Of a stretch of 64,000 nucleotides of DNA, positions 4,184 to 54,098 are shown piece after piece. Position numbers and translations under genes: made by a program. Source of the DNA: a bacterium (GTDB lineage Bacteria; JAUVQV01; DATDCY01); NCBI GenBank assembly GCA_036524115.1, contig DATDCY010000315.1:41917-105916 (forward strand). The letters run 5' to 3'. The first letter of the stretch is position 1. The number at the start of each line of letters is the position of its first letter. The notes below the pieces were generated by a model. It was not told the DNA's origin. It was given only the letters and a program-made list of their open reading frames with translations, and ran no database searches.

Positions 4184-4353
4184 GCGGGCAGCGACCGGTC
4201 CATCGTCGGCCGAGTGCCCGGTCGCAGCCGACGGCGGAGCCGGTTCGCCTGCACCGACAGCGGCCGTCTCTTCCCCGCAGCTGAGGGAAGGGGCGGCCGC
4301 ATCAGGCGATGCGAAAGGTCGGCAAGGATGGCGCCCCTGCTTCGATCTGCCCC

Positions 4354-5226
4354 TTAGGAGAGAATACTCTCCTGATCGCGCAGCTTCAGGTGGGCGGCGA
4401 TCGAGCGGGCGACGATGGGACTTGCCAGCTCCGGGGGGAGCGAGAGCTCCTTGAGGACGCATCTGGTCGTCTCCAGCGGGTCCGGCTTCGGGGATGTCCC
4501 CGCGCAGAGTCTGACCGCATCATGGATCCTCTGAAGATATCGAAGTCCCTCCTCCATGCTCGAGAAGATGGCGCTGCCCTTCCGCGGCTCGTCCCAGGAG
4601 GGAAGCAGGTAGCGCACGTCCTTGACCGCCATCAGCTTCCGGATCGAGCGGACCGAGGCCAGGACGTCATCGTAGACGGGCGGCTCACCGGGGACCGGGA
4701 TGGCGTCTCCCGAGAAGAGCGCCTGGTAGCCCAGCAGCAGGATGGAGATCGAACCCGGCGAGTGGCCCGGGGTGTGGAAGACCTGCAGCTTCAGGCCGCA
4801 GCCGAGATCGAAGACCTCGCCATCCTCCAGCAGCCGGTCCACGGCAAGGGAGCCGGCCACGAGGGCGTCGAAACCGGGCACCGGTCTCTCCCGGGCCTGG
4901 AGCTGCACGTTCTCGATCCACGCCCTCTCCAGGGGATGCACGGCGACCGCGCATCCCGTCTCCCCCTTTATCGTCCGGGTCGCCCCGATGTGGTCCGGGT
5001 GGGAATGGGTCTGGACGATCAGCGAGATGTCGTCGACTCTCCGTCCCGTGACCCGCAGATAATCGAAGATCGCCTCCTCGGCGGAGGCCACGCCGCTGTC
5101 GATCAGGCAGACGCCGTTCGTGCCATAGATCAGATAGACGTACACGAACCTGTCGATCAGCGCCCCCGCGGGGGTGACGATCGTGAAAGGGACTTTGAGC
5201 GCATGAAGATGCTTGTTGATCTGCAT
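4354..5226 (-). CDS. Metallo-beta-lactamase fold hydrolase
   Basis: The HxHxDH motif is present (QTHSHPDHIG). Downstream His and Asp ligands are present (HTPGHSPGS, GD). Confidence 0.8.
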   Translation of the reverse strand: MQINKHLHALKVPFTIVTPAGALIDRFVYVYLIYGTNGVCLIDSGVASAEEAIFDYLRVTGRRVDDISLIVQTHSHPDHIGATRTIKGETGCAVAVHPLERAWIENVQLQARERPVPGFDALVAGSLAVDRLLEDGEVFDLGCGLKLQVFHTPGHSPGSISILLLGYQALFSGDAIPVPGEPPVYDDVLASVRSIRKLMAVKDVRYLLPSWDEPRKGSAIFSSMEEGLRYLQRIHDAVRLCAGTSPKPDPLETTRCVLKELSLPPELASPIVARSIAAHLKLRDQESILS

Positions 5227-5452
5227 GACTCATTGTAGCAAGAGTCCGATGCAGGAAGCAGGGGCGGAAGAGGCGGCCAACGAAGAGGGGACGGACGGTC
5301 CTTCCAGCGCAATTTGCTGTGTTTGCCCCATGGTCCCCGCGATTCCCCGGCCATATGTTTTGACGCACCGCGGGAGAACCTCGGTGCCCGCATGGTGGCC
5401 GACCGGGTTGTGGTGACGCGGCGGCCAGGGAAACGGGGATGAGGAGAGGCTT

Positions 5453-31035: not shown

Positions 31036-32643
31036 CTAGCCGGCTTCCTCGCCGGGGACGTCCCCCCGGCGCAGCAGCGTGATCACGTGCCCGTCGAGTT
31101 CCGCGTGGCGGGCTGCGACCGACGGTCCCGCGCCAAGGGCGACGCGGCTCTCCTCCGGCCCGATCTCCAGCACGCGCACCTGTCCCCAGGCAACGGCGAG
31201 GTCGATGCCCAGTACCTTGGCGGCGGCCTCCTTGACGGTCCAGACGCGCGCGGCCGCCGCGATCGCGCCGAGCTGCGACGACGCGACCAGCGTCTGCTCC
31301 GCATCGTCGGCGTAGAGCGGGAGGTTCTCGAGAAGACGGTCCTGGAGCGCTTCCACGTCCACGCCGACGGCCGTCTCCGCGGCCACGGCGATGGTGAAGC
31401 GCCGGTCGTGCGACACGCTGCAGCGCAGGCCCGTCCCGCCGGCCAGCGGCCTGACGCCGTCCCCGTCCAGCGTGTGGATGGCGGTCGCGGGGGTGCGCTC
31501 ATCGCCGGTCAGCCGGCGGAAGAGGCGTTTGCACGCGAGGCGTGAAGAACAATACGAGGTCCGGCGCCGCTCGCCCATCCCGGCCGTGCGCAGGCGCTCG
31601 GTCTCGGTGAGACACTGCTCCGCAAAGGGCATCAGCGTGGCCTGTTCGATGAGGACCACGGCGGCGCATCCCCGGGCGATCGGTCCGAGGGGATCCTCCT
31701 CCGCCCCGGCGCGGACCCACGCCGGCGGCTGCAGCGTCCCGCCGCTCACGTCGCGCATGGTCACCCCGTGGAGCACCTCGCACGGCTGGCCCGCCATGTC
31801 CAGGATCCAGATGTCGAAGGTCAGCACGCCCGCGGCGGCCCCCACGGGGAAGATCCGGCTCACGTAGGTGCCGCCCTCCGTGGGCCGCACGATCTCCCGC
31901 CGGCGGAAGCCCACGGGAAAGGCCACGATCCCCGCGTGCCGCTGGCTCCAGACGCAGGCGGCGTGCAGCGCGGCGTCGAGCACGAAGGGCGAGCCGAGGG
32001 GCGGCTCGGGCGCGTCCTGGCTGCGCGCGGGGGCGTCGATCACCGCGAGCGCCCCCTCGGGCGAGACGAACAGGGGGCGGGCGATCGTCCGGAACGCGGG
32101 GCCGAACGGGACGAGGTCCCGGTAGATCGCCTCCGGCTCCACCGTGAGGCAGCGGCCCGCGAGCGCGGCGGCGAGGTCCAGGGCCGCCGGGATCTCCGGC
32201 CGCTCTTCGGCGACGAACTCGACCTGCGCATGAACCCGCGTGCGCGTCATGCCGGAGGACCCGGCCGCCGTCCGCGTGAGCAGCGCGGCGCGCAGGGAGC
32301 CGTCGTCCAGCGGGCGCAGCTCGCACCAGGCCGCGATCGGGCCTCCGCCGCTTGGCAGCTCGAGGAACTTGTCGAAGGTCGCGTTGCGCAGGCGGCGCAC
32401 CGGCCGGCCCGGTTCGCGCTCGCGGACCCAGCCCGCCAGCAGCTGCATGGCCTCCACGGCCGGGAGCACGGCCCGCCCCTGGAAGCGGTGGTCGGCCCAG
32501 GCGGGCTCGACCGGGATCGTCACGGCCAGGCGGCCGTCGGGACCTAGCGGGGGAAGCGCGCCCACAACTCCAGGGTCTTCTCGTCGATGCCCACCGGGAT
32601 GCCCCTGGCGTTCACCGCGCAGTGCCGCGTGAAGCCGGTGCAC
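31036..32643 (-). CDS. Fusion of PKS-type dehydratase (double hotdog, HxxxGxxxxP) with C-terminal Sfp-type 4'-phosphopantetheinyl transferase
   Basis: The DH motif is PAWADHRFQGRAVLPAVEAMQLLAGW. PPTase motifs GVDVEALQ and WTVKEAAAKVLG lie in the C-terminal 120 aa. The ATG at 32643 would overlap the upstream thioesterase by 100 nt. A GTG at 32565 is an alternative. Confidence 0.6.
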   Translation of the reverse strand: MHRLHAALRGERQGHPGGHRREDPGVVGALPPLGPDGRLAVTIPVEPAWADHRFQGRAVLPAVEAMQLLAGWVREREPGRPVRRLRNATFDKFLELPSGGGPIAAWCELRPLDDGSLRAALLTRTAAGSSGMTRTRVHAQVEFVAEERPEIPAALDLAAALAGRCLTVEPEAIYRDLVPFGPAFRTIARPLFVSPEGALAVIDAPARSQDAPEPPLGSPFVLDAALHAACVWSQRHAGIVAFPVGFRRREIVRPTEGGTYVSRIFPVGAAAGVLTFDIWILDMAGQPCEVLHGVTMRDVSGGTLQPPAWVRAGAEEDPLGPIARGCAAVVLIEQATLMPFAEQCLTETERLRTAGMGERRRTSYCSSRLACKRLFRRLTGDERTPATAIHTLDGDGVRPLAGGTGLRCSVSHDRRFTIAVAAETAVGVDVEALQDRLLENLPLYADDAEQTLVASSQLGAIAAAARVWTVKEAAAKVLGIDLAVAWGQVRVLEIGPEESRVALGAGPSVAARHAELDGHVITLLRRGDVPGEEAG

Positions 32644-38503: not shown

Positions 38504-39868
38504 TCATCGCACGAGGTGCTCCCACAGGGGGCCGGACCGGCCGCGCTGGTGCATACGCTGGAGGATGGCCGTCGCGGCGTCCCCGCCGGAGGCCTCGACC
38601 CAGTTGTCCCGCCCCCGGGCCCGCTTGGCCAGGGCCTGCGCGATCGCGGGAAGGGTGATCCCCGCCGGCTGGTAGAACACCGGTTCCACGATGTTCGCTC
38701 CGGCGGCGATCTGCCCCTCCCGCACGGCCAGTTCGTGCAGGGGCGTGTTCGGGTAGATGCGCATGCCGCCGAAGAGGAAGAGAACGGTCCTCTCGAGCGT
38801 CTCGATCTGCGCCAGGGTGTCGGCGAACGTCTCCTCCGTCTCACCGGGGCCGCCGAAGAGGAGGTAGTGGGCCACGTGCAGGCCGGCGGCCCGCGCGGCG
38901 CGGTGGGCGGCCAGCACCTCGCTGCGGCGGAAGGGCTTGCCGTAGGCCTTCAGGACGCCGTCCGTCAGGGACTCCGTGCCGAATTCCACGTGCCTGAGCC
39001 CGCAGGCGGCCATGGTCTCGAAGTAGCCCTCCGGCAGGGCGACGGGCGCGAAGAAGCCGCCCCAGGGGATCGTGAGGCCGTGCTCCCGGAAGGCGCGGGC
39101 GACCTCCAGGCTGTGTCCCACGTCGGCGTTGAACGCCGAGTCGGTGATGAAGAGGTACCGGGCCCCCGCCTCCTGGAGCCGCAGGGCGGTGGCCGCCACC
39201 TCGTCGACCGGCGCGTGGCGCAGGCGCCGGCCCTCGATGCGCGGGTAGGTGCAGTAGACGCAGCGGAACGGGCAGCCGCGCTTGGTCTGGAGATTGAGCA
39301 TGCCGCCGTTGCGCAGGTAGAAGTCCACGTGCCCGGCCCGCGCGTCGAAGCGGCGCCTGACGGACTGCGGCCAGGGCTCCGGCGCGGGCAGCGGCGGCCC
39401 CGCGTCCGCCCCGCTCCGGGTCACGACGCCCGGCAGGCCGGCCGGGTCCAGCCCCGCGGCCAGCGCCTCGAGCAGCGCTTCGAGCCGCTCGCCCTCGCCG
39501 ACTATTCCGTAGTCGGCCTCCAGCAGTTCCATGGCTTCGCCCGGGAAGATCGTGAAGCCGCTGCCCCCCAGCACGATCGGCGCCCCGCTGCAGCGGCGGA
39601 CGCGAAGGGCGAGCTGGCGATAGTCCCCCATGTAGCTGCGGGGGGCGCGGCTGTCGGTGTTGTCTGCGTTGCGGAGCGAGAGCCCGATGACTTCGGGGCT
39701 CCATTCGGCGACGGCGCGCTCCAGCGCCTGGTCCTCGCCCAGACAGTTGAGGTCCAGGCAGCGCACCTCGTGCCGCGCGGAGATGGACCCCGCCACGTAG
39801 TCGAGGCCCAGCGGGTAGACCGGGAACGGCTCGCGCACGGTGTTGACGGAGAGCAGGAGCACTCTCAT
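38504..39868 (-). CDS. B12-binding (class B) radical SAM enzyme
   Basis: An N-terminal B12-binding-like Rossmann segment is present (MRVLLLSVN...VIGLS). The rSAM cluster is RGCPFRCVYCTYP. The ORF is 454 aa. Confidence 0.85.
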   Translation of the reverse strand: MRVLLLSVNTVREPFPVYPLGLDYVAGSISARHEVRCLDLNCLGEDQALERAVAEWSPEVIGLSLRNADNTDSRAPRSYMGDYRQLALRVRRCSGAPIVLGGSGFTIFPGEAMELLEADYGIVGEGERLEALLEALAAGLDPAGLPGVVTRSGADAGPPLPAPEPWPQSVRRRFDARAGHVDFYLRNGGMLNLQTKRGCPFRCVYCTYPRIEGRRLRHAPVDEVAATALRLQEAGARYLFITDSAFNADVGHSLEVARAFREHGLTIPWGGFFAPVALPEGYFETMAACGLRHVEFGTESLTDGVLKAYGKPFRRSEVLAAHRAARAAGLHVAHYLLFGGPGETEETFADTLAQIETLERTVLFLFGGMRIYPNTPLHELAVREGQIAAGANIVEPVFYQPAGITLPAIAQALAKRARGRDNWVEASGGDAATAILQRMHQRGRSGPLWEHLVR

Positions 39869-42027
39869 CGCGGCCCGACCATCACGGCGGAGGAGGAGAG
39901 GCCGAGGCCCAGCAGCAGGACGCCCCGGCCGCCGAGGGGGACATCGACCCCGCCGGCGAGGGCGGCCGGGACGAGCTGGTCCCGGACCATCCGGTGCGCG
40001 AGGACCGCCGCAACCGCCGAGGCCGCGCCGAACTGACCGATGGCGCGGCGATAGTCGATCACGGGCCTATCGAAGCCGCTGGCCGCCACGAAGGCCGCCA
40101 GGTCGCGGGAGGCCGCCTCGGCGTGCCCGGCGGGGATGCCGGCGAGGATGGCGCCGACGGTGTTGCGGACGTTCCCGGCCCCACCCGCGGCCTCGAGCAG
40201 CGCCTGCATCGCGTCCGCCCCCGAATCGCCGCGATACGCCAGGAGGGCGACCGTGGGCTCGTCGCCGCGCGCCCGCCGCAGCAGCAGCGCCCCGCCCCCG
40301 TCGGCCGGCGGGGTGCCGCGCACCGAGTCGTCGAACAGCGGCGCCAGCGACGGATGGCCCTCGTCGACGCCGAGCACGAGGACCGCCTGGCCGGGGTCGC
40401 CCGCCAGCAGATCGGCCGCCAGCAGCGCCTGCTCGAAGGAGGCGTCGCCGCCCGTGGTCGTGACGTTGGCCCCCCGGGCGCCGAGGTGCATCGCGATCTG
40501 GCCGGCTGGCGCGTTGTGCACCGAGCCGACGAAGTCCGTGGGGGAGGGGAACCGCTGCCGCGTCTCGAAGAGCCGGCGCAGGAAGTCGTGCGTCTCCGAG
40601 AGCGCGCCCCAGGCCGTGCCGAGGCAGACGGCCATGGGCCCGGCGCCGGCGGGCGCGCCGTGACAGGCCTCGGTCGCCAGGGCCAGGGCCAGCCGCGACA
40701 GACGCTTGAGTCGACGGACGACGCGCGACGGCAGCTCCCCGCAGATCGCCTGCTCGTCGAGGCAGCCGGCGCAACTGCCGCCCGCCGCGAAGCGCTCCCA
40801 GGTGGCGCGCGTGCCGCCGGCCCCGGTCAGGCAGGCGGCGGCAGCGATTGCCAGTGCGGGCGGACGCGGTGGCATCGCGCGAGCGGTCCCGGGCCGGGCC
40901 CTGCCGATCACCAGCGCCGCGTTGTTCCCGCCGAACCCGAAGGAGTTGGAGAGCACGGTGCCGATGCTCCGCCGGACAGGCGCCGTCACCGGGTCCAGCT
41001 TCAGCTGCGGATCGACGTTCTCCAGTCCCGCGTTGGCCGGTGCGAAGCCCTCGTTCACGGCCAGGGCCGAGACCACGGCTTCTATCGCGCCCGCCGCGGC
41101 CAGACTGTGTCCGGTCGCCCCCTTGATCGAGGAGAGAGCGGGCGGGTGATCCCCGAAAAGCGAGACGACGGCCCGCGCCTCGGCCAGGTCGTTGTCCTCG
41201 GTGCCGGTGCCGTGGAGATTGATGTAGTCGATTTCCTCGGGCGCCACGCCGGCGTCGGCGAGGGCGGCCCGCATCGCGGCGATCGCCCCCAGGCCCTCGG
41301 GGTGGGGCGCCGCCGGGTGGTGGGCGTCGCACGACAGGCCGGCCCCCAGTAGCTGCGCGCCCCCGCCGGCGGGCGGATCGCTCGTGAGCAGGAGCAGGGC
41401 CGCGCCCTCCGCCACCGACATGCCGTGCCGGTCGCGGTCGAGCGGGCGGCTGCCCCGCGGGTCGATGAGCTGGAGGGAGTGGAATCCGAAGTAGGTCAGG
41501 CGGCAGAGGCTGTCGGCGCCGCCGGCCAGCACCCGCCGCGCCAGCCCGCGGCGCAGCATGGCCATCGCGAGGGCGATCGCCACGGCGCCCGACGAGCAGG
41601 CGGTGGAGACGGTGATGAGCGGGCCGCGGCAGCCGCAGCGCCGGGCAAGCAGCTCGGCCACGGTGCCGGCGCCGTGATGGCGGTAGGCGGCCGGGTCCTC
41701 GCAGCCGCCTTCCAGCAGCGTCTCGGTGCGCAGGATGCCGCCGGTCGTCGTGCCCAGGACGATGGCGTCGACCGGGCCCGGGGCGCCGGCCAGGGCCTGG
41801 TCCGCGGCAAGGCAGGCCAGACGGTGTGTGCGGGGGAGGCGTTCGCCTTCGTCCTCCGCGAGGTCCACCGCCCCGACGGGCAGGTCGTTCCCGGATTCGA
41901 TGGGGAAGATTCGCAGCGGCCCCAGCCCGCGTCGTGCTTCGAGCAGGGCCGACAGCGTCTGGTCCGTGCCGCTCCCGAGGGCGCCGATCACCCCCATCCC
42001 GGCGATGGAGACCGGGCCACCGCTCAA
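39865..42027 (-). CDS. Ketosynthase fused to a Cys-less KS-like (chain-length-factor-like) domain
   Basis: The N-terminal half has VSIAGMGVIGALG, TACSSGAVAIA, NLHGTGTEDND and GATGHSLAAAGAIE. The C-terminal half has KS-like LAIAAAACLTGAG...RRLKRLSRLALALATEA but no active-site Cys (VHNAPAGQIAM). No stop lies between the halves in this frame. The TTG start overlaps the ACP stop (TTGA). Confidence 0.65.
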   Translation of the reverse strand: MSGGPVSIAGMGVIGALGSGTDQTLSALLEARRGLGPLRIFPIESGNDLPVGAVDLAEDEGERLPRTHRLACLAADQALAGAPGPVDAIVLGTTTGGILRTETLLEGGCEDPAAYRHHGAGTVAELLARRCGCRGPLITVSTACSSGAVAIALAMAMLRRGLARRVLAGGADSLCRLTYFGFHSLQLIDPRGSRPLDRDRHGMSVAEGAALLLLTSDPPAGGGAQLLGAGLSCDAHHPAAPHPEGLGAIAAMRAALADAGVAPEEIDYINLHGTGTEDNDLAEARAVVSLFGDHPPALSSIKGATGHSLAAAGAIEAVVSALAVNEGFAPANAGLENVDPQLKLDPVTAPVRRSIGTVLSNSFGFGGNNAALVIGRARPGTARAMPPRPPALAIAAAACLTGAGGTRATWERFAAGGSCAGCLDEQAICGELPSRVVRRLKRLSRLALALATEACHGAPAGAGPMAVCLGTAWGALSETHDFLRRLFETRQRFPSPTDFVGSVHNAPAGQIAMHLGARGANVTTTGGDASFEQALLAADLLAGDPGQAVLVLGVDEGHPSLAPLFDDSVRGTPPADGGGALLLRRARGDEPTVALLAYRGDSGADAMQALLEAAGGAGNVRNTVGAILAGIPAGHAEAASRDLAAFVAASGFDRPVIDYRRAIGQFGAASAVAAVLAHRMVRDQLVPAALAGGVDVPLGGRGVLLLGLGLSSSAVMVGPR

Positions 42028-42299
42028 CTGGTGAGCCTCGGGGACTTCTCCTGGATGTAGCTGGCGAGCGTCCGCAGGGAGGCGAAGACCCTGGCGCCCA
42101 GCTCCTTGTTGTCGATGACGACCCCGTAGTCCCGCTCGATCATGACGACCATTTCCAGGGTGTCGATGGAGTCGATCCCCAGGTCGCCGCCGACGAGCCG
42201 GCCGTCCAGGGGGATGTCGGCGGGGGTGACGTCCGGGAGGTTGAGGATCTGAACGATCTTGACCCGCAGCGCTTCGATCAGCGTGTCCATGTCCTCCAC
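42024..42299 (-). CDS. Acyl carrier protein
   Basis: GGDLGIDSIDTLEMVVMIERDYG is present. The ORF is 91 aa. Confidence 0.8.
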   Translation of the reverse strand: MEDMDTLIEALRVKIVQILNLPDVTPADIPLDGRLVGGDLGIDSIDTLEMVVMIERDYGVVIDNKELGARVFASLRTLASYIQEKSPRLTS

Positions 42300-42316
42300 A
42301 TGATATCATCTTTCCC

Positions 42317-42766
42317 ATGGGCGCCGAGGGGACGCAGGGCGGTCCGAACGTGGACCTCGAGACGCTCGTACCCCATCGCGGCCGCATGCTGCTGCTCTCG
42401 GAGATCGTCTCGTTCGATACGGACGAGGCCACCTGCCGCGCCGTCGTGCGCGAGGGCTGGCCGCTGACCGGGGAAGGCGGCGCCGACCCGCTGGTGCTCA
42501 TCGAGCTGGTTGCCCAGACGGCGGCGGTCAACAACGGCTGGAACATCATCCAGACGCAGGAGCCGGGGCGGCACCACCGCGGCTGGATCGCGGGCATCAA
42601 GAGCGCCCGGCTGGGGGTCGACCGCATCGCCCTCGGCACGGCGCTGACGACCCGGGCGCGGAACCAGTTCGCCTACGAGGAGTTCCGCGAGATCGAGGGC
42701 ACGGTCAGCATCGGCGCGGAGGTCGTGGCCGAGGTGACGCTGCAACTCGTGCAGGCGGCGCCGTGA
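42317..42766 (+). CDS. Hotdog-fold dehydratase (FabA/FabZ-like, APE-type)
   Basis: LVPHRGRMLLLSEIVSFD...LIELVAQTAAV is present. The ORF is 149 aa. Confidence 0.7.
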   Translation: MGAEGTQGGPNVDLETLVPHRGRMLLLSEIVSFDTDEATCRAVVREGWPLTGEGGADPLVLIELVAQTAAVNNGWNIIQTQEPGRHHRGWIAGIKSARLGVDRIALGTALTTRARNQFAYEEFREIEGTVSIGAEVVAEVTLQLVQAAP

Positions 42767-44786: not shown

Positions 44787-46280
44787 TCAGCCGTCCAGCT
44801 CCTCGAACCGGTTCGCCGCCCTGAGCCGCGCCATCTCGCGCTCGTAGCTCGCGCGCCAGCCGATCTTCCGGCGGCGGCGGCCGAGCACCACCTTGAGCAC
44901 GGGGCGCACGAGGTAGAGCCAGATGCCGATCCAGAGCGGCCCCTGCATGCGCGCATGGCGGGAAGGCTCCCACCAGCCCAGGACCTGCTGGCGCTGGTAC
45001 CAGACCAGGTACTGCAGGGCGTCGGCGTCCAGGTGCCGGGTCCGCACGTTCGCCCAGATGCCGTTGTAGGTCGAGAAGTCGTCCGCGTTGGTGACCAGCC
45101 CCTCGTCCAGCAGCTGCTGGCGGATGCCGGTCTTGGGGTACGGCGTGAGTATCTGGCAGTAGGGGGAGTCGACGTCGACCTCCTTGAGGAAGCGGTAGTT
45201 GTCGATGAAGTCCTGCTCCTCGTCGTCGGGGAAGCCGAAGATCATGCCCCCCACCACCATGATGCCGTACTTGTGGCACAGTTCCACGGCCCTGCGGGAG
45301 GCGTCGAGGATGTCCCCCTTCTGGGCGGCCTTGAGGTTCTTGCGGGAGGCGCTCTCGATCCCCAGGAAGATGCTCTTGAAGCCCGCGCGGGCCATCAGGG
45401 CAACCATCTCCTCGTTGCGCGACATGGTGACGCAGTCGGCCTGGACGACGAAGTGCATGCCGCGGTAGGCGCGCTCGATGATCGCCTTGCAGATCTCGAT
45501 GACCCGCGGGGGCGAGAGCACCATGTTGTCGTCGGAGACGAAGACCCAGCGGCAGCGGCGCTTGTGGTAGATATCGTCGATGTCGGCCAGGATGCGCTCG
45601 ATCGGGAACGGCCGGAAGGACTGGCCGTACATGTGCCGGATGCTGCAGAAGTTGCACGAGCGGTTGCAGCCGCGGGAGGTCTCCATGACCTCCACGCTGC
45701 GGTTCATGATGTGGTAGCCCCACGTCAGGCGCCGCTTGTCGCGGATGGGCAGCTTCAGGCGCGCGAGGTCCAGCAGCTCGCCCTTCGGGTTGTGCACGAG
45801 CGCGCCGTCCGCCCCGCGGTGCGAGAGAGAAGGGATCGCGGCGACATCGTCCCTGCCGGCCAGCGCGTTGACCAGGCGCCGGAAGCACTCCTCGCCCTCG
45901 CCCCGCACGAGGAAGTCGATGTCCCGGGCCCCGGGGTCGCGGCCGATCTCCTCGTACATCAAGGTGGCGTGGTAGCCCCCGACCACGATCCTGGCCTGCG
46001 GCAGCCACTGCCTGACCAGGCGCGCGATCTTGAGGCAGGTGCCGAACTGCCAGGTCATCGACGAGAGGCCGACGACGTCGGGGCGCAGCTTGAGCAGGGT
46101 CCGCTGGAGGTACCCGCGCACGGTGCCACGCTTGCGGACGAGATCGACGAGGAAGACCTCGTGGTCCTCGTCCAGGTTGGCGCCCAGGCTGGCGATGCCG
46201 AGATTCGGCATGTGAAAGGCGGCCTCGTGCATGATGACCGCGGCGACGTCCGGCATGGAAGCGAGCACCACCCTCATTGC
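44787..46280 (-). CDS. B12-binding (class B) radical SAM enzyme
   Basis: The start is MRVVLASMPD...VVGLS. The rSAM cluster is SRGCNRSCNFCSI. The ORF is about 497 aa. Confidence 0.85.
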   Translation of the reverse strand, partial: AMRVVLASMPDVAAVIMHEAAFHMPNLGIASLGANLDEDHEVFLVDLVRKRGTVRGYLQRTLLKLRPDVVGLSSMTWQFGTCLKIARLVRQWLPQARIVVGGYHATLMYEEIGRDPGARDIDFLVRGEGEECFRRLVNALAGRDDVAAIPSLSHRGADGALVHNPKGELLDLARLKLPIRDKRRLTWGYHIMNRSVEVMETSRGCNRSCNFCSIRHMYGQSFRPFPIERILADIDDIYHKRRCRWVFVSDDNMVLSPPRVIEICKAIIERAYRGMHFVVQADCVTMSRNEEMVALMARAGFKSIFLGIESASRKNLKAAQKGDILDASRRAVELCHKYGIMVVGGMIFGFPDDEEQDFIDNYRFLKEVDVDSPYCQILTPYPKTGIRQQLLDEGLVTNADDFSTYNGIWANVRTRHLDADALQYLVWYQRQQVLGWWEPSRHARMQGPLWIGIWLYLVRPVLKVVLGRRRRKIGWRASYEREMARLRAANRFEELDG

Positions 46281-46302: not shown

Positions 46303-47103
46303 TCACCCTTGCGCCGTCGCCCCGCCGGCCGCGGGCTCCAGCAGCGCCCGCACCTGGGCAATCAGCGCCCGGGTCGAGAAGTTCGGCCGGTCGTACGCCG
46401 GGGTGAGGCGCGCCAGCAGCCGCACCGTGATCGTGTTGGGCCGGCAGGCGGCGAAGCGGAAGCGTCCCGGCGTGAAGAGCCGCTGGGTGTTCCCGATGGC
46501 CGCCACGGCCACGGGCGCCCTGCAGAGCCGGGCGATCTTGAACGCACCGGCCTGGAGCGGGCCGACGGAGCCGTCGCGGCTGCGCGTGCCTTCAGGGAAG
46601 ACGAAGAGGTTGCCGCCCCCGGCAAGGAAGGTCCGCATCCCCTCGAGGTGCTCCAGCGTGCGCTCCGAATCGGGGCCGCCGGACGCCAGGTAGCCCGACG
46701 CGCGCAGCACCCAGCCGAGGAAGGGGTAGCGGAAGAGACGTTCCTTGACGACGGTCGTGTGCCGGGGGAAGAGGGAGATGAAGAGCAGCGGGTCGAGATA
46801 CGAGAGGTGGTTGCACACGACGACCGAGCCGCTCACGGCGGTCAGCGCCGGGTCGATCTCCCAGCGCTGCCGGGGCATGAGCAGCCGGCAGAGTCGGAAG
46901 AAGCCCCGGTAGAAAAGATTGTTGAGGCGCTGCGCCGCCCGGGCGCGGTTGTGCCCCAGCGCCATCGCCAGGAGGCAGAGGGGCGCGAAAAAGAACACGA
47001 AGCCGAGTATGAAGTATCCCCAGAGGACGAGCGTGACCGCGACCTCGACCGCCCACGTCAGGAGGCGCGGCAGGCCCGTTCGTGCGTCCGCGCCGCCGCT
47101 CAC
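46303..47103 (-). CDS. PlsC-family lysophospholipid acyltransferase
   Basis: VVCNHLSYLDPL (HX4D) and FPEGTRS are present. Two N-terminal TM helices are present. The GTG start overlaps the upstream KS stop (GTGA). Confidence 0.8.
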   Translation of the reverse strand: MSGGADARTGLPRLLTWAVEVAVTLVLWGYFILGFVFFFAPLCLLAMALGHNRARAAQRLNNLFYRGFFRLCRLLMPRQRWEIDPALTAVSGSVVVCNHLSYLDPLLFISLFPRHTTVVKERLFRYPFLGWVLRASGYLASGGPDSERTLEHLEGMRTFLAGGGNLFVFPEGTRSRDGSVGPLQAGAFKIARLCRAPVAVAAIGNTQRLFTPGRFRFAACRPNTITVRLLARLTPAYDRPNFSTRALIAQVRALLEPAAGGATAQG

Positions 47104-48338
47104 GGCGTCGCCTTCCGGAGGACGAGGCAGGTGTTGACGCCCCCGAAGGCGAAGTTCTGGATGGCCGCGGTCCGCACGGGCTCCTCGACCAACTGTCGGA
47201 CGTGGCGGACCATGGCGCAGCGCTCGTCGACCTCGTCCAGGTTGAGCGTCGGGGCCACGAAGCCCCCGTGCATCATGTAGAGCGTGAGGATGGTCTCGAT
47301 GGCGCCGCACGAGCCCATGGTGTGGCCCATGTAGCTCTTGAGGCCCGCCACCCAGGGTCGCCGGCCGTAGATGCCGCCCATGGCCTGGGCCTCCATGACG
47401 TCGCCCATCTTGGTGGCCGTGGCGTGCGCGCTCACGAAGTCGATCTCGTCGGCGCTCACCCGCGCCTCCTCCAGCCCGAGGCGGATCGTGCGCTCGATGC
47501 CGCGGACGTCGGGCAGGATCAGGTCGCCGCCGTTGTTGGTGCAGGCGAAGCCGAGAAGCTCCGCGAGGATGGGCGCCCCGCGGCGTCTGGCCCGCTCGTA
47601 CTCCTCGAGCACCACCGCGCCGGCCCCCTCGCCCACGACGAGGCCGTCGCGCCGATTGTCGAAGGGCCGCGGGGTCAGGTGCGGCGTGGCGTTGAACTCC
47701 GTGGAGCAGGCCATCAGGTTGTCGAAGACCGCCACGGTCGTGGTGTCGTACTCGTCGGCGCCGCCGCAGAGCATGGCGTCCTGCATGCCGAACTTCACCG
47801 CCTCGTAGCCGAAGCCGATGGACTGGCTGCTGGTGGTGCAGGCCGTCGAGGAGGAGATCACCCGGCCGGTGATGCCGAACATCCGCGTGATGTTCACCGC
47901 CGTGGTGTGCACCATGGACTTGAGATAGTCCACCGCGCCGATGTTCGACAGCCCGCGGTCGTCCTTGCCGAAGAAGGTCCGGTAGATGTCGCGCTGCACG
48001 GTGGGGCTGCCGTGGGTGGAGCCGAAGGCGACGCCCAGGCGCCCGGAGGTGACGAACTCCTCGTCCAGGCCGGAGGCGGCCAGCGCCTCCTTGGCCACCT
48101 GGCAGGCGTAGTAGGCCACCGGCCCCATGGTCTTGCGGTGGTGGCGCGAGAAGCCGTACTCGATGGGGTAGTCCACGGTGCCGAAGACGCCGGCGTGGAT
48201 CTGGGCGGAGAGCAGGTCGTCCCTGCGGATGGCCTTGACCCCCGATATCCCCTCGGTCAGGTGCCGGACGATCCCCTCGCGCGTGTTGCCGATGGGGGTG
48301 ATGGCGGCGCAGCCGGTGACGACGACCCTGCGGCTCAT
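47100..48338 (-). CDS. Beta-ketoacyl-ACP synthase (KS)
   Basis: The start is MSRRVVVTGCAAITPIG. Catalytic contexts are SSTACTTSSQ, SAHATATKMGD and MGHTMGSCGAIE. Confidence 0.85.
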   Translation of the reverse strand: MSRRVVVTGCAAITPIGNTREGIVRHLTEGISGVKAIRRDDLLSAQIHAGVFGTVDYPIEYGFSRHHRKTMGPVAYYACQVAKEALAASGLDEEFVTSGRLGVAFGSTHGSPTVQRDIYRTFFGKDDRGLSNIGAVDYLKSMVHTTAVNITRMFGITGRVISSSTACTTSSQSIGFGYEAVKFGMQDAMLCGGADEYDTTTVAVFDNLMACSTEFNATPHLTPRPFDNRRDGLVVGEGAGAVVLEEYERARRRGAPILAELLGFACTNNGGDLILPDVRGIERTIRLGLEEARVSADEIDFVSAHATATKMGDVMEAQAMGGIYGRRPWVAGLKSYMGHTMGSCGAIETILTLYMMHGGFVAPTLNLDEVDERCAMVRHVRQLVEEPVRTAAIQNFAFGGVNTCLVLRKATP

Positions 48339-48364: not shown

Positions 48365-48624
48365 TCAGGCGGCCGTGCGGGCGGCGGCCAGGCGCAGGAC
48401 GTAGTCCACGATCTGGCCGACGGTCCTGATCTCCATGGCGCTCTTCTTCTCCTCGTAGGTCAGGGGGCTGCCGAGGAGCAGCTCGATCTCGCGCAGCAGC
48501 TCGACCGCGTCGATGCTGTCGAACTCGTAGGCCTCGCGCAGGTCCTCGTCCTGGCCCGGGTCCTTGATCTCGAAGCGCTCCGCGAAGACCTTGAGGATGG
48601 CGGCACGGGCTTCGTCGCGGGTCA
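48365..48624 (-). CDS. Acyl carrier protein
   Basis: EFDSIDAVELL is present. The start is placed at MTRDEARAAILK. An upstream ATG at 48644 is an alternative. Confidence 0.7.
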
Positions 48625-48723
48625 TCGGCACCCCGGACGGCATGACACTGGCGATCGCAGCATGGTCACGACTTTCTACTACAAGAGCCGCCGCCTGAAA
48701 AGTCAAATCTTCGTCGGCCTCGC

Positions 48724-49431
48724 TTGTGCTTCATGCCGCGCTCTGGCACCGTTTTCACGATGACAGCGCTTGGACAGAGCAGGGTCCCCGAGACGAACGG
48801 CACCACGGCCGGCCGCGCCTACGTCGACGCCTATGACCAGATGCAGGCGGAACACTGGCGGCAGGGCTGGCTTGGGACCGAGGATCTCCTGCTCGAGGGC
48901 GTCACGAGCGGATCGGCGCTGGAAGTCGGGTCGGGGCCTGGCTTTCTCGGCCTGGATTGGCTGCTGCGGACGAAGGGCACCGTCCTCGTCGGTCTTGACA
49001 TCAACCCCGACATGGTCGGGCTCGCCGTGAGACACGCGCGGGAACTGGGACTCGGCGACCGCGTCGGGCACGTCCTCGGCTCCGCGGCGGCGCTGCCGTT
49101 CGAAGACAACTCCTATGACGCCGTCTTCACGAACCGCTCGCTGCACGAGTGGCTCGACCCAGGTCTGGTCTTCGCCGAGATGTGGCGGGTCCTGAAACCC
49201 GGCGGCAGGATGTTCGTGTCCGATCTCCGCAGGAACCTCTCTCCCAAGGCCCGCTACTTCCTCGAGAGCTGCGTGACCTCCGAGCTGGTCAGGGAAAGTC
49301 TCCGTGCCTCGATCGGCGCCGCCTACAACGTCGCGGAGGTGTCGGCCATTCTGGCGGCGGCGGAACTCGGCGACGTGGCGGTCGCCGAGACGATGCTCGG
49401 GTTGCGGGTGACGGGGGTCAAGCCGGCCTGA
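48724..49431 (+). CDS. Class I SAM-dependent methyltransferase
   Basis: ALEVGSGPGFLG and ...VFTNRSLHEW...LKPGGRM are present. An internal ATG at about 48760 is an alternative start. Confidence 0.75.
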   Translation: MCFMPRSGTVFTMTALGQSRVPETNGTTAGRAYVDAYDQMQAEHWRQGWLGTEDLLLEGVTSGSALEVGSGPGFLGLDWLLRTKGTVLVGLDINPDMVGLAVRHARELGLGDRVGHVLGSAAALPFEDNSYDAVFTNRSLHEWLDPGLVFAEMWRVLKPGGRMFVSDLRRNLSPKARYFLESCVTSELVRESLRASIGAAYNVAEVSAILAAAELGDVAVAETMLGLRVTGVKPA

Positions 49432-51034
49432 TGCGCGCGCCCGGAGGGGGGTCTGCCGGCGGCGCGGCCAGCGGCGGGCCCAGGAAGCGCGAGAAGTGGA
49501 ACCACTCGAGGGGCCGCGATCGCACCTCGGCTTCCAGCAGGTCGGCGTAGGCCTGCGCGGCCTCCCGCACGACCTCGCGGCGGCGCTCGCGGCTCGCGGC
49601 CGGCAGCGGCAGGGGGCCGCGCAGGGCGAAGTGGTACTGTCGCGGTGCGCGCCGCGCCGCGAAGAAGACATACAGCGGCGCCCGCGCGACCAGGGCCAGC
49701 ATGAACGGCGCCTCCGGCAGGCGCACCTCGTGACCCGCGAAGCGCACGGGCAGCCCCTCCCGGTCCTCGCGCCAGTCCAGGTCGCCGGCCATGGAGACGA
49801 AGCCGCCGGAGCGCAGGAAGGCCGCCCCCTCGACGAGATCGAAGGGCGAGCCGCCGTCCTCGCCCACGACCTGCAGGCGGACGCCGCTGGCCGCGAGGTC
49901 CTCCTTCTGCAGGCGCTCGATGTCCTCCTTGGCGCGCCGGCCGACGTAGAGCATCAGGCGCAGCTCGGGGAGGGAGCGCCGCAGCAGGCGCGCGCCCATC
50001 TCCCAGGCGCCGAGGTGCGACATGAGGAGGATGCCGCCGCGTCCCTCGGCCAGCGACGCGTACAGGTGCTCGCGGCCTTCGAAGGTGAAGCGGATGGCGT
50101 CGCCGCTCTCGAGCAGCAGGCGGTCGAGGTAGACCGTGGTGAACGTCTGGAACTGCCGCCAGGCGCACCACCAGGCGTGCCAGCGGCCGCGGCCGGGGAA
50201 CAGGGCGCGGTAGAACGCGGCGCTCACCGCTGCGCGGCGGGGGAAGAGCACGAAGTAGCCGGCGGCGACCACGCGGGCGGCGACGCCGAAGAGCCAGGCG
50301 CCGAAGACCCGCGACGCGGCTGCGAGGAGACGATAGAAGAGACGCGGCACGCCCCGGAAGACGCGGCGCACGATCAGGCGGGCGAAGGTGTCCGAGTTGC
50401 GGCAGAAGTCCACGAAGGGCCGGAAGTGCGAGATGCGCTCGGCGCCGAAGTAGCGCACGCTCACCGGCGTCTCGATCGCCGGCAGCCCGGCCCAGGCGGC
50501 CTTGACCAGGACCTCGACCTCGAACTGGTAGCGCCGGGCGCGCAGCTCGAGGGCGAGGACCTCGGGGAGGGGGTAGATGCGCAGGCCGCTCTGGCTGTCG
50601 AGCACCCGGGGGCCGCCCGCCGCGCGGACCCAGAAATTGGAGAAGCCGCGCCCGAAGCGGCTGGTCCACGGGGCGCCCTCGCTCGCCATCTGCCGGCGCT
50701 GGCCGACGACGATCGGCCGTTGCCCGGCCGGGATGGCCGCGATCAGGCGCGGGATGTCCGCCGGGTCGTGCTGGCCGTCGGCGTCGAGCGTGACGGCCCA
50801 GTCCGCGTGCTCGGCCGCGGCCCGGAAGCCGGTGAGCAGCGCCGCGCCCTTGCCGCGGTTCACCGGGTGCCGCAGCAGGCGCACCTGCGGCAGGGCCTCG
50901 ATGCCGTCGACGCCGCCGTCCGTGGAGCCGTCGTCCACCACCCAGACCGGCCAGCCCAGCGCCGCGGCCGCGCGCACGACCTCGCGCGCCGTGCGGCCGT
51001 GGTTGTACACCGGCACGACGACCGCGAGTCTCAT
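49418..51034 (-). CDS. Fusion of family-2 glycosyltransferase with LpxL/HtrB-type lipid acyltransferase
   Basis: The N-terminal half has VVVPVYNHG...DDGSTDG...LDADGQHD. The C-terminal half has LLMSHLGAWEMG. The ATG overlaps the upstream stop (ATGA). Confidence 0.75.
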   Translation of the reverse strand: MRLAVVVPVYNHGRTAREVVRAAAALGWPVWVVDDGSTDGGVDGIEALPQVRLLRHPVNRGKGAALLTGFRAAAEHADWAVTLDADGQHDPADIPRLIAAIPAGQRPIVVGQRRQMASEGAPWTSRFGRGFSNFWVRAAGGPRVLDSQSGLRIYPLPEVLALELRARRYQFEVEVLVKAAWAGLPAIETPVSVRYFGAERISHFRPFVDFCRNSDTFARLIVRRVFRGVPRLFYRLLAAASRVFGAWLFGVAARVVAAGYFVLFPRRAAVSAAFYRALFPGRGRWHAWWCAWRQFQTFTTVYLDRLLLESGDAIRFTFEGREHLYASLAEGRGGILLMSHLGAWEMGARLLRRSLPELRLMLYVGRRAKEDIERLQKEDLAASGVRLQVVGEDGGSPFDLVEGAAFLRSGGFVSMAGDLDWREDREGLPVRFAGHEVRLPEAPFMLALVARAPLYVFFAARRAPRQYHFALRGPLPLPAASRERRREVVREAAQAYADLLEAEVRSRPLEWFHFSRFLGPPLAAPPADPPPGARIRPA

Positions 51035-52746
51035 GTGAAGGCTTCGGGGAGGAAGGCGATCGCCCAGGTGCCCGGTCCCATGTGGGCGCCGGAGGTCAGG
51101 GAGAGGGGGCGCACCAGGATCGAGGCGCGCGGCAGCAGCGCGCGCACCTCCCGGGCGGCGACCTCCTCGACCCAGGGCCGGTTGTCGGAGTACTGCAACA
51201 GGATCAGCGGCGCGGACCCGGGGGGAAGCGCCGCCTCGAGCCTGCCGCGGGCGAACGCCACCTGGTCCTCGCGCCGGTGGACCACCCCCACCTTGACCGC
51301 GCCCTCGGCCAGCGGCGAGACGACCGGCTTCATGCGCAGGAGATCGCCAAAGAAGCCCTGGGTCTTCGAGATCCGCCCGCCGGCGGCCAGGAACTTGAGC
51401 TGGTCGAGGAAGATGAACTCCTGGGCGTGCGCGAGCGCCGCGCGGGCGAACTCCCGCACCGCCTCGACGCCGTGGCCCGCGCAGGCGTGGCGGGCGGCGG
51501 CCAGCGCGACGATGCCCAGGCGGCCGGCGGCGGTTCCGGTGTCGACGATGCTCAGCCGCCCCTCCGGGTCGTTCGCCGCCTGCCAGGACGTCGCCGCCGC
51601 GACGTTGCCCGTGTAGTACGACCCGACGCAGAGGTAGAGCACGTGCCGGTGGCGGCTGACGGCGCTCAGGTAGCTCTGGTGCCTCTGGAACACCGACGCC
51701 TGCGCCGTGGAGACCCTCGTCCCGCCGGCCATGGCCTCGTAGAGGGTCTCCGGGGCCACCAGCGTCTCGGGCCAGGACTGGTCGCCCAGCACCAGGTAGC
51801 TGTCCAGGACGGTGATGCCGAGGGAGGCGGCGTCCTCCGCGCCGATCGAGCCGGCCGCATCCGTCATGACGTGCACGGCCTGCGATGCGCGCGCGGCTGG
51901 GACGGCCGCAGCGGCGATCCGCTCCTCGCGCCAGGAGATCACGGGACCGATCTGGGCCAGCCCGCGCCGCAGCGCGTCCCGGTCGCCGGTGTGCAGGTGG
52001 ATCTTCACGCCGCCGGTCCCCTCGCTGACCACCACGCTCTCGCCCAACGTGCCCAGCAGCTCCCGCGCTTCGTCCGCGTCCCTGTCGGACCCCACCAGGG
52101 TGCTGACGCAGTAGCCGGCCTGCGCCTCCTCCGGGCGCCAACGCTCGGCCACCGCGAGCCCTGTGCTGAAGCGCTCGGTCACCGGACGCGCCTCGCCGCG
52201 CCCCGCAAGCTCGTGGAGGAGGGTCTCGACGAAGATGAACATGCCGAGGGCGCCGGCGTCCACCACGCCCGCGCGGGACATCTCGGGGAGGATCGTGGCG
52301 GTCGCGGCCACGCTCTTCTCCAGGACCTCGACGATGTCTTCCGCGTCCCAATCCGACGGCGGCACCGACCCGGGCGGCAGGGCGCCGGCGAGGTCGTCGA
52401 GCAGCGTGAGCATGGTGCCCGGCTTGGGGTCTGCCACGGCGCGGCGCGCCTCGCCCGCCCCTCGGCGCACGGCCGCGGCCAGGTCTTCGGGGGCCTGTGC
52501 CTCGAGAAGGGGCCGGAGGAAGGCGGCCGCGATGTTGCCGGCGTTGCCCGTCGCCGCCCCGAGGATCCGCCGGGCCGCCTCCCCGGGACGGTCCGGCAGC
52601 AGGCGCAGCGGCGCGAGGCTGACCCTGAGGTTGCGGCCGGTGTCGGCGTCGGCCACGGGAAAGACGTTGATCGCGTCGAGCAGGTCCGACCAGGCCGCGA
52701 GGCGCTCGTACCCCTTGACAAGGGCGCTGCCGAGGCGCCGGTCCAT
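51031..52746 (-). CDS. DAK2 (DhaL-like) domain fused to DegV-family fatty-acid-binding domain (fatty acid kinase-like)
   Basis: The N-terminal half has NVFPVADADTGRNL. The C-terminal half has VHVMTDAAGSIGAEDAASLGITVLDSYLVLGDQSW. The ORF is 571 aa. Confidence 0.65.
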   Translation of the reverse strand: MDRRLGSALVKGYERLAAWSDLLDAINVFPVADADTGRNLRVSLAPLRLLPDRPGEAARRILGAATGNAGNIAAAFLRPLLEAQAPEDLAAAVRRGAGEARRAVADPKPGTMLTLLDDLAGALPPGSVPPSDWDAEDIVEVLEKSVAATATILPEMSRAGVVDAGALGMFIFVETLLHELAGRGEARPVTERFSTGLAVAERWRPEEAQAGYCVSTLVGSDRDADEARELLGTLGESVVVSEGTGGVKIHLHTGDRDALRRGLAQIGPVISWREERIAAAAVPAARASQAVHVMTDAAGSIGAEDAASLGITVLDSYLVLGDQSWPETLVAPETLYEAMAGGTRVSTAQASVFQRHQSYLSAVSRHRHVLYLCVGSYYTGNVAAATSWQAANDPEGRLSIVDTGTAAGRLGIVALAAARHACAGHGVEAVREFARAALAHAQEFIFLDQLKFLAAGGRISKTQGFFGDLLRMKPVVSPLAEGAVKVGVVHRREDQVAFARGRLEAALPPGSAPLILLQYSDNRPWVEEVAAREVRALLPRASILVRPLSLTSGAHMGPGTWAIAFLPEAFT

Positions 52747-53153
52747 CAGAATCCCAGCGCCTGCCGGATGTCTTCGGGGATCGTGAACTCCATCTCCATC
52801 GTCGCGTAGCGCACCGCGAGCTGCTCGCTGGTGCCGCGGGCGCAGAGGATGCCGCCGTCGACCTTGCGGATCTCGAAGGACATGCCGATCTTGTACTGCG
52901 CCTCAGTCACGGCGGCCCGGCAGACGAACTCGTCGAAGGCCCGCAGCGGGGCGATGTGCTTGAGGGCCGTGCGCGTCACCGGGAAGGCGTACCCCTTCTC
53001 GATCATGTAGGCGTAGAGATCGACGCCGCGCTCCGCGAAGAGGCCGAAGCGCGCCACGTCGAAGTACTTCAGGTAGTTGCCGTGCCACACGATGCGCAGG
53101 GGGTCCACATCGTGGAACGGGACCCTCATCCGCAGTTCGTAGACCGCTCCCAT
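52746..53153 (-). CDS. 4HBT-family thioesterase
   Basis: The start is placed at MGAVYELRMRVPFHDVDPLRIVWHGNYLKYFD. The longer ORF has an implausible N-terminus. Confidence 0.7.
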   Translation of the reverse strand: MGAVYELRMRVPFHDVDPLRIVWHGNYLKYFDVARFGLFAERGVDLYAYMIEKGYAFPVTRTALKHIAPLRAFDEFVCRAAVTEAQYKIGMSFEIRKVDGGILCARGTSEQLAVRYATMEMEFTIPEDIRQALGF

Positions 53154-53510
53154 GGCCCCAACTCTATCGCATGTCCTCACCGGGGAATGCAATCCTTTGG
53201 TGCCGAACTCACTGGAACATCCCCCATCTTCGAGGGACAGGGGATGAGCTCCAGGGTCAGGCACAGGCACACTTGCCTCACGACCGGTGCAATGCCATAA
53301 TTCAACAGTTCACAAGGCGATAGTTTGCCTCTCCTCGGGTGGACTCGGCAACGGGCCGAGAGTTGCGCGTCGTCCGGCACTGACAGCGCGATCACTGGAA
53401 GGAGGGTTCTCGTCGCTGTCCAGGACAGATCAGAGTTGATCCGCCGATCCTGAAGAAGGTCTTTGGAGAGCTCGAATTCTGGTATTCCGCAAGCATCAAA
53501 GGAGGCAGTC

Positions 53511-54098
53511 ATGAGAAGTGGCGTGAATTCCGCCTCTCGCTTGTCAGGTCTAGTCATCCTCGGGGCCGTGCTGGTCGGGTGTGCGGGGGGGCAACAGTCA
53601 GCACGCCAGGAAACCTCTCCACAGTCGACTGCAGCGAGCACCGTCCAGAAGCTGAGCAGAAAGTACTCTCAGGTTGTCTTCAGCGGTGTTGAGGTCCCTC
53701 CCCAGATCGCCAAGGACTATCCGGAAGCTGCCGATCATTGCAGGGACGGCGCAATTGCCGAACTGAGGAAGAAGGGCTTGTTTGACAAGGTTGAAGCGGC
53801 TTCCGGGGAGCAGACCTACGGCAGCGATACACTCGTGGTGCGGACGAAGATCGAGGATATGCGATTGGTCAGCCGTTCCGCCCGCTTCTGGGGCGGTGCC
53901 TTCGCCGGGAAATCCAGCATGACGTTGAATGTGGAACTGGTGGAGGCGGGAACCGGGAATGCCCTGGGCACGCAAAAACTGTCAAGTTCGAACAATGCCT
54001 GGGGTGCATCCTGGACGTTTGGCAGCAGCGACGCCTCCCTGCCCTCCGACATGGGCGCTGTCGTCGCGGAGTATGTTGCCTCCGTCATGCCCAATTGA
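53511..54098 (+). CDS. Lipoprotein, unknown function
   Basis: AAAGGAGG precedes the ATG. The signal peptide MRSGVNSASRLSGLVILGAVLVGC contains a lipobox. It lies in a locally lower-GC segment. Confidence 0.55.
   Translation: MRSGVNSASRLSGLVILGAVLVGCAGGQQSARQETSPQSTAASTVQKLSRKYSQVVFSGVEVPPQIAKDYPEAADHCRDGAIAELRKKGLFDKVEAASGEQTYGSDTLVVRTKIEDMRLVSRSARFWGGAFAGKSSMTLNVELVEAGTGNALGTQKLSSSNNAWGASWTFGSSDASLPSDMGAVVAEYVASVMPN

Follow-up and report, generated by a model that had tools for sequence, protein, structure and literature searches.

Can a fatty acid kinase be housed in a single polypeptide, and what might such an enzyme contribute to a gene cluster for a specialised lipid? This question is raised by a gene in a stretch of bacterial DNA of 64,000 nucleotides (NCBI GenBank assembly GCA_036524115.1, contig DATDCY010000315.1, positions 41,917 to 105,916 of the forward strand), which we call the window and whose first letter is position 1. 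The gene lies at 51031-52746 on the minus strand and encodes a single-chain Fak-like protein of 571 residues, delimited by its open reading frame (ORF) and its domains and here called the kinase. What has been learned about fatty acid kinase (Fak) comes almost entirely from Gram-positive pathogens, in which two proteins, FakA and FakB, make up a system for scavenging. A first-pass annotation, made from the letters of the window alone, had proposed that the gene fuses a DAK2 and a DegV domain and supplies the acyltransferases encoded next to it.

A complete FakB-type domain in the kinase polypeptide

With a GC content at third codon positions (GC3) of 0.95, the reading frame of the kinase fits the window sequence, which has about 70% GC; hence we regard it as the true gene and many of the ORFs overlapping it as spurious. 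The gene is complete and the N-terminus of its product aligns with full-length homologues. A database protein from a bacterial metagenome-assembled genome, P0001, labelled 'DegV family protein', is 100% identical to it. Both motifs from which the fusion had been deduced were located in this 571-residue frame, DADTGRNL of the DAK2 domain at residues 33-40 (window 52627-52650) and TDAAGSIGAED of the DegV domain at residues 295-305 (window 51832-51864).

The Pfam scan confirmed that Dak2 and DegV occur in one chain, each above its curated cut-off: Dak2 matches residues 56-177 with 48 bits, and DegV (PF02645) matches residues 291-567 with 123 bits (E 1.7e-35) over positions 2-279 of the 280 in the model. 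Between them lies a FakA middle domain that the first-pass annotation had overlooked (FakA-like_M, PF21645; residues 210-270, 31 bits, likewise above cut-off). These three were the sole domains found, and the scan detected no Dak1 (DhaK) domain. Among the NCBIfam models, TIGR00762 (DegV) scores 129.4 bits against a cut-off of 99.7; TIGR03599 (YloV/FakA) is matched at model positions 4-292 of 530 with 126.4 bits against a cut-off of 396.1, and NF038248 (FakA) reaches 55.9 bits against a cut-off of 975. The chain, read on the minus strand, thus begins with a FakA_N or DhaL-type ATP-binding helical domain (residues 1-185; 52192-52746), placed by alignments to 7w7h_A, 8vip and 7rm7. A middle domain follows that is a bare beta-alpha-beta-beta-alpha-beta unit (residues 210-276; 51919-52119), according to PF21645, the alignment to 7w7h_A and the structural model. 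A short and poorly conserved linker (residues 277-290; 51877-51918), recognised by variable alignment columns, by the confidence of the model and by DSSP, leads to a full-length lipid-binding domain of DegV/FakB type (residues 291-567; 51046-51876), placed by Pfam, TIGR00762, alignments to 2dt8, 1pzx and 3pl5, and Foldseek.

Is this C-terminal half a FakB, or is it the C-domain of an ordinary FakA? The latter is a trimmed and degenerate DegV-like fold that docks a separate FakB and has lost three insertions forming the roof of the fatty-acid tunnel (PMC9136124, PMC10848957). None of 33 members of the kinase family matches PF13684, the family of the FakA C-domain, even at E<=10. The hhalign comparison of the kinase-family C-domain profile with the canonical FakA_C profile gave a probability of 5.5%, and the FakA_C structure 6W6B is absent from the top 50 Foldseek fold matches of the kinase model. 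Because the profile, alignment and fold tests all speak against FakA_C, the claim of a Dak2-DegV fusion stands. The possibility that the C-terminal half would turn out to be a FakA C-domain, which the first-pass annotation had itself raised, was not borne out: the half is a full-length DegV. These three results rule out an ordinary FakA as a candidate, and we consider that reading of the kinase essentially excluded. The C-domain is a complete FakB and not FakA_C.

The predicted fold agrees with this assignment. An AlphaFold model built from the kinase-family alignment has a predicted local distance difference test score (pLDDT) of 86 and a predicted template modelling score (pTM) of 0.89. In Foldseek, its C-domain superimposes on crystal structures of DegV/FakB loaded with palmitate, oleate and vaccenate, the template modelling (TM) scores being 0.80-0.88 (target-normalised) over about 280 columns, and its N-domain on FakA_N structures with TM scores of about 0.7. 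The DegV domain includes the insertions that roof the fatty-acid tunnel. In the linker, pLDDT falls below 50 at residues 283-285, where DSSP assigns coil. The model has only coil between the strand at 269-276 and the first DegV strand at 292, the place where FakA has its dimerisation helix, and the missing helix suggests that, if the model is right, the kinase would catalyse in cis.

Residue conservation was assessed over 33 full-length relatives with 50-87% identity to the kinase, and over a wider set of 57 cluster representatives obtained at 50% clustering. In S. aureus FakA, ADP-(Mg)2 is bound by N32, D38, D40, T41, N82 and D185 (PMC9136124). The corresponding positions in the kinase, N27, D33, D35, T36, N68 and D163, are invariant in 33/33 relatives. 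The same holds for C213, H250 and H252, which match S. aureus C240, H282 and H284, the Cys240/His282/His284 set of the FakA middle domain that is needed for catalysis (PMC9136124, PMC10848957). Both groups are also mostly invariant across the 57 representatives. FakB proteins hold the fatty-acid carboxylate in a hydrogen-bond network of Thr61/62, Ser93/95 and His264-270, and need Arg170/173 for phosphotransfer (PMC10848957, PMC9136124). In the kinase these are T347, T379 (a Ser to Thr change), H555 and R458, again invariant in all 33 and largely retained across the 57 representatives. Residue alignments of the DegV domain were available for 3pl5, 1pzx and 2dt8; T347 and T379 were placed by alignment to T62 and S94 of 1pzx, through which the numbering was mapped, whereas motifs in the 2dt8 alignment served to place H555 and R458.

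The invariant Arg458 sits in a loop at residues 454-468 (window 51343-51387), AAGGRISKTQGFFGD, whose sequence is almost invariant. This loop is the sole stretch within a domain where pLDDT drops below 50, which would fit a mobile gate covering the portal for the ligand, as far as the model can indicate.

The conserved gene string and its aryl-polyene-like cluster

The kinase gene is coupled to both of its neighbours, as had been noted at first pass. The stop codon of the upstream thioesterase gene and the start codon of the kinase gene share the sequence TGATG, and ATGA is common to the kinase stop and the start of the downstream gene. The upstream gene (52746-53153, minus strand) encodes a hotdog thioesterase (4HBT_2, YbgC-like), identified by Pfam, by the overlap and by BLASTP. 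Its most likely start is the ATG at 53153, from which it has 135 residues, as its homologues do; a GTG start at 53270 was considered and set aside. The downstream gene (49418-51034, minus strand) encodes a fusion of a GT2 glycosyltransferase and an LpxL-family acyltransferase according to Pfam, NCBIfam and BLASTP. The string continues on the same strand with an acyl carrier protein (ACP; PP-binding; 48365-48625, 86 residues from the ATG at 48625, within an ORF that reaches 48706), a beta-ketoacyl-ACP synthase (KAS; 47100-48338, Pfam) and a PlsC-family lysophospholipid acyltransferase (46303-47103, GTG start at 47103; PF01553 and BLASTP), and it ends with a B12-binding radical SAM enzyme (44787-46277, Pfam). 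A separate methyltransferase lies on the opposite strand at 48724-49431. The minus-strand string is interrupted immediately upstream of the thioesterase by a plus-strand gene (53463-54098) for a DUF4410 protein whose N-terminus resembles that of a lipoprotein.

We searched 84 related loci with the window proteins, 79 of which have enough upstream sequence and 42 of which have full 10-kb flanks; the resulting counts are approximate since a few loci duplicate one another. The thioesterase link holds up and is conserved across relatives: a homologue on the same strand stands directly upstream of the kinase gene, within 300 bp, in 72 of the 79 loci. Among the loci with full flanks, GT2 was found in 37/42, LpxL in 34/42, ACP in 30/42, KAS in 40/42, PlsC in 30/42 and the B12-radical-SAM gene in 37/42, nearly always in the order thioesterase-kinase-GT2-LpxL-ACP-KAS-PlsC-radical SAM. 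Three annotated relatives have the same neighbourhood together with an ApeP-like dehydratase and ketoreductase (KR) genes. GT2 and LpxL are fused in the window, in close relatives (L003) and in E. coli ApeJ, and form two adjacent genes in Desulfatitalea-type loci (L002 12552-14198). In the locus of Desulfosarcina ovata (L001), the thioesterase-kinase pair is immediately preceded by an AMP-binding enzyme, and a fusion of an MMPL transporter and a methyltransferase (1032 residues) lies at 4309-7407; no MMPL gene was present among the window ORFs scanned.

By Pfam on the window genes, this string belongs to a lipid or polyketide-type cluster of about 30 kb (31036-62377). The cluster comprises two hotdog thioesterases, four ketosynthase-type genes, a dehydratase-phosphopantetheinyl transferase fusion, an ApeP-like dehydratase, a FabG-like reductase, at least five B12-radical-SAM genes, a phytoene-desaturase-like flavoenzyme, a polysaccharide deacetylase, GT25, MipA, an outer-membrane beta-barrel protein and LolA. 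In pairwise BLASTP comparisons with the aryl-polyene (APE) cluster of E. coli CFT073, the GT2-LpxL protein is homologous to ApeJ (29% identity, 538/558 residues, E 8e-44), the thioesterase to ApeK (31% identity over the full length, E 4e-22) and the PlsC-type enzyme to ApeD (35% identity, E 3e-20). The window thus has the parts of an aryl-polyene-type lipid cluster that were looked for: homologues of ApeK, ApeJ and ApeD, ketosynthase/chain-length factor (KS/CLF), KR, ApeP-type dehydratase (DH), ACP and LolA. The E. coli cluster has no Dak2/DegV gene. Compared with it, the window also adds the radical SAM genes, the flavoenzyme, the deacetylase and GT25, and the extra radical SAM genes suggest a chain unlike an aryl polyene.

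The dehydratase-phosphopantetheinyl transferase fusion is one ORF at 31036-32643 (minus strand) with PS-DH, PKS_DH_N and 4'-phosphopantetheinyl transferase (ACPS) domains, and the same fusion of 511 residues is found in Desulfosarcina ovata (L001, 1296-2831). An ORF of 924 codons at 39865-42639 (minus strand) holds a complete ketosynthase (N and C parts) followed by Ketoacyl-synt_2; it is either a KS/chain-length-factor fusion or two genes merged through high GC. As a whole, the cluster resembles the aryl-polyene and 'ladderane-like' clusters reported by genome mining in Desulfobacterota. The genome-mining reports on ladderane clusters in that phylum contained nothing bearing on the kinase, and full-text searches yielded no papers linking DegV with 'aryl polyene' or 'ladderane'.

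A putative route for the acyl chain

What might a fatty acid kinase do in such a cluster? ApeK, ApeJ and ApeD attach aryl polyenes to a lipid anchor, and in Xenorhabdus the backbone of the aryl-polyene lipid is glycerol-phosphate-GalNAc (bioRxiv 10.1101/2020.12.19.423268). There, ApeD was proposed to place the cluster-made chain on sn-2 of 1-acyl-glycerol-3-phosphate, and ApeJ to join the sugar to the phosphate and then to acylate the sugar (bioRxiv 10.1101/2020.12.19.423268). In bacteria with the PlsX/PlsY pathway, lysophosphatidate is made from acyl-phosphate. A kinase route would fit the cluster because the ApeD/ApeJ scheme needs lysophosphatidate, and PlsY makes this from acyl-phosphate. 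A precedent for the first half of such a route exists in Firmicutes: TesS of S. pneumoniae and TesE of E. faecalis release free acid from acyl-ACP, and FakAB turns it into acyl-phosphate for PlsY, so that PlsX is bypassed (PMC10449490). By analogy, the coupled thioesterase-kinase pair looks like this TesS/TesE-Fak route built into a lipid-assembly operon.

With moderate confidence we therefore read the kinase as a self-contained, single-polypeptide fatty acid kinase that is paired with the thioesterase and whose acyl-phosphate most likely goes to PlsY. The thioesterase would free an acyl chain from the ACP of the cluster, and the tethered DegV domain would capture the free acid and hold its carboxylate exposed. 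The Dak2 and middle domains could then phosphorylate the acid, and a housekeeping PlsY, as the most likely consumer, would convert the acyl-phosphate to 1-acyl-glycerol-3-phosphate. Subsequently the ApeD-like PlsC might acylate sn-2, and the ApeJ-like GT2-LpxL protein might glycosylate the phosphate and acylate the sugar, as proposed for aryl-polyene lipids. In the protein itself, the linker of about 14 residues would tie the ATP/Mg and Cys-His-His domains to an intact FakB-type DegV; FakA_C, known solely as the part that recruits a separate FakB, may be gone because a covalent tether makes docking unnecessary.

Several observations weigh against this proposal. The head-group motifs of the DegV domain carry invariant, family-specific swaps (TDS to TDA, TSQPS to TAQAS and LSGT to YTGN), and the ligand might thus be something other than an ordinary fatty acid. 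Opposite H226, the fourth zinc ligand of S. suis FakA, the alignment has a gap, and the helices that flank the FakA middle domain are missing from the kinase model. Neither plsY nor plsX was found among the window genes, nor less than 10 kb from the kinase gene of the three annotated relatives, so that PlsY is not encoded locally. Finally, no hydrolysis of APE-ACP by E. coli ApeK was seen in vitro, and this enzyme may instead serve in proofreading (PMC8253772).

Which other roles could the kinase have? The first-pass annotation had the acyl-phosphate used for PlsC or LpxL-type transfer, and the tight and conserved kinase-GT2-LpxL-ACP-KAS-PlsC string, with the kinase stop overlapping the GT2-LpxL start, would suit direct use by the neighbouring PlsC-type or LpxL-type (ApeJ-like) acyltransferases. 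Such a donor has no known precedent: PlsY is singled out as the user of acyl-phosphate, while other acyltransferases use acyl-ACP or acyl-CoA (PMC5700162). In addition, the homologous ApeD and ApeJ work in clusters of E. coli and Xenorhabdus that have no kinase, and are proposed there to use ACP-bound chains. This part of the earlier proposal is not supported, and we think direct use unlikely. It might also be possible that the enzyme phosphorylates a group other than a carboxylate, for example a hydroxyl, on the lipid bound by DegV, and that the lipid phosphate so made serves the Dpm1/ArnC/PpgS-like GT2 as acceptor. PpgS, AglJ and ArnC, the named proteins to which this GT2 is most closely related, transfer sugars to lipid phosphates, the altered head-group motifs would accord with another ligand, and the cluster holds a polysaccharide deacetylase and a sugar-acylating LpxL/PatA-like domain. 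Against this, the kinase family has kept without exception the four residues with which FakB binds or neutralises the carboxylate, and the acceptor proposed for ApeJ is the phosphate of diacyl-glycerol-3-phosphate, for which no extra kinase is needed (bioRxiv 10.1101/2020.12.19.423268). We regard this role, too, as improbable.

Could the protein bind lipid without phosphorylating it? As a non-catalytic carrier or sensor, it would shuttle the product of the thioesterase to the acyltransferases, with Dak2 as a nucleotide-dependent switch; some DegV proteins alter membrane lipid content with no kinase role demonstrated for them (PMC10138225). The Mg-binding Asp pair, the phosphate-contacting Thr and Asn, the Cys-His-His set and the FakB Arg are, however, strictly invariant, and because of this we favour phosphotransfer over mere binding and find the carrier role very unlikely. 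More improbable still, indeed barely credible, is that the DegV domain is a mere dock for a separate FakB encoded elsewhere, which would make the protein a FakA in function. The domain does sit at the position of FakA_C, which itself has a DegV-related fold (PMC9136124, PMC10848957). It is nevertheless of full length and has the tunnel-roofing insertions that FakA_C lacks, its carboxylate-binding residues and catalytic Arg are invariant, and it has no similarity to the FakA_C profile. The window has no second DegV gene, and the annotations of the three relatives show none closer than 10 kb to the kinase gene.

The reading of the kinase as a single-chain fatty acid kinase can be taken one step further, in a form that we offer tentatively and hold to be rather doubtful: the thioesterase-kinase pair may be a dedicated off-loading module that passes a cluster-made acyl chain from the cluster's own ACP to glycerolipid synthesis as acyl-phosphate. 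If this were true, it would be the first Fak chemistry in a Gram-negative specialised-lipid pathway of aryl-polyene type and the first fatty acid kinase to work as a single chain in cis. Apart from this further step, the kinase also suggests a way in which bacteria that begin phospholipid synthesis with PlsY might direct a special acyl chain to the sn-1 position. Its constant pairing with an ApeK-type thioesterase offers a concrete, testable role for that enzyme of the very widespread aryl-polyene clusters.

Family spread and comparison with known systems

How exceptional is the fusion? At least 120 full-length proteins with the Dak2-M-DegV architecture are present in the protein database, and a scan of one genome per species with two family-specific peptides found relatives of the kinase in 502 genomes. 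Of the best 80 of those loci, about 75 belong to Desulfobacterota (Desulfobacterales, Syntrophales, Syntrophobacterales), three to Spirochaetota and one to SAR324, and one is labelled Pseudomonadota. An unfiltered search with residues 1-285 of the kinase gave 80 representative clusters at E<=1e-30, and all of the full-length ones (57/57) carry DegV; the domain is covalently fused in every member of the kinase family examined. Forty distant representatives included 20 other Dak2-M-DegV fusions of 600-645 residues and 22 canonical FakA proteins, and no fewer than two of the 40 have matches to DegV as well as to FakA-like_C. This second set of fusions (P0203-P0261) stands between the kinase family and canonical FakA in similarity; two of its members, P0204 (866 residues) and P0246 (780 residues), are longer than the others. 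One protein, P0165 (584 residues), appears to join thioesterase and kinase in a single chain and was tried as Rosetta-stone support; we rejected it as an assembly artefact because frameshift-like low-complexity nonsense lies between its conserved blocks.

The architecture is already known to databases and mentioned in the literature. According to bioRxiv 10.1101/2021.02.16.431466, Erni et al. 2006 already described Dak2-DegV fusions, and such fusions adjoin heliorhodopsin genes in Chloroflexi and Firmicutes (bioRxiv 10.1101/2021.02.16.431466). Given the 502 species genomes, the other fused lineages and the DegV-like C-domain of FakA itself, the fusion is not exceptional. Judged by its sequence, the kinase is a widespread, database-annotated single-chain variant of fatty acid kinase. 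What is new here is the complete-FakB nature of its C-domain, the pairing with an ApeK-type thioesterase and the setting in an ApeJ/ApeD-type cluster of Desulfobacterota. Our literature searches found no characterised single-chain Fak enzyme, and the association of the kinase with Ape-type clusters was not found in the searchable literature.

The family is large: its relatives reach into about 500 species genomes, from sulfate reducers and syntrophs that matter in the environment. The mechanism of Fak is debated with respect to the role of the Cys-His-His residues, the domain-swapped dimer and the way in which FakB is presented to the ATP site; a natural single-chain form with fixed 1:1 stoichiometry and no docking domain might be simpler for studies of structure and mechanism. 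On the more doubtful reading of the pair as an off-loading module, the kinase could moreover represent the undegenerated state behind the two-component Fak, and FakA_C would be a decayed FakB that once acted in cis.

The kinase shares with the FakA and FakB of S. aureus, S. suis and S. pneumoniae the ATP/Mg ligands, the Cys-His-His middle domain, the DegV fold, the Thr/Ser/His carboxylate network and the catalytic Arg. FakA and FakB are two polypeptides, whereas the kinase is one, without FakA_C and without the helix that follows the middle domain; they serve fatty-acid scavenging in Firmicutes, whereas the kinase family is found in Desulfobacterota, within a specialised lipid cluster. Stand-alone FakB, of about 280 residues, exchanges with FakA, while the DegV domain of the window is covalently fused. 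Canonical FakA/YloV has the N-terminal and middle domains in common with the kinase and differs in its C-terminal half, which is FakA-like_C instead of DegV. The nearest relatives outside the kinase family, the lineages of 600-645 residues, have the same three-domain order but longer linkers and a divergent DegV, which scores 25-175 bits against the family model compared with more than 300 within the family. A single-chain arrangement of a different kind is known from the DhaK-DhaL protein of Citrobacter freundii, in which a DhaL-type nucleotide domain is also fused to an EDD-fold substrate domain (PMC10848957). Its domain order is opposite, however, its substrate domain is Dak1 and not DegV, and its substrate is a small molecule and not a lipid. 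A functional parallel is the route from TesS/TesE through FakAB to PlsY, for which the chemistry would be the same, from acyl-ACP to free acid, acyl-phosphate and sn-1 acylation (PMC10449490). In Firmicutes that route is a weak side route of unlinked genes, whereas the thioesterase and the kinase of the window form a translationally coupled and conserved pair.

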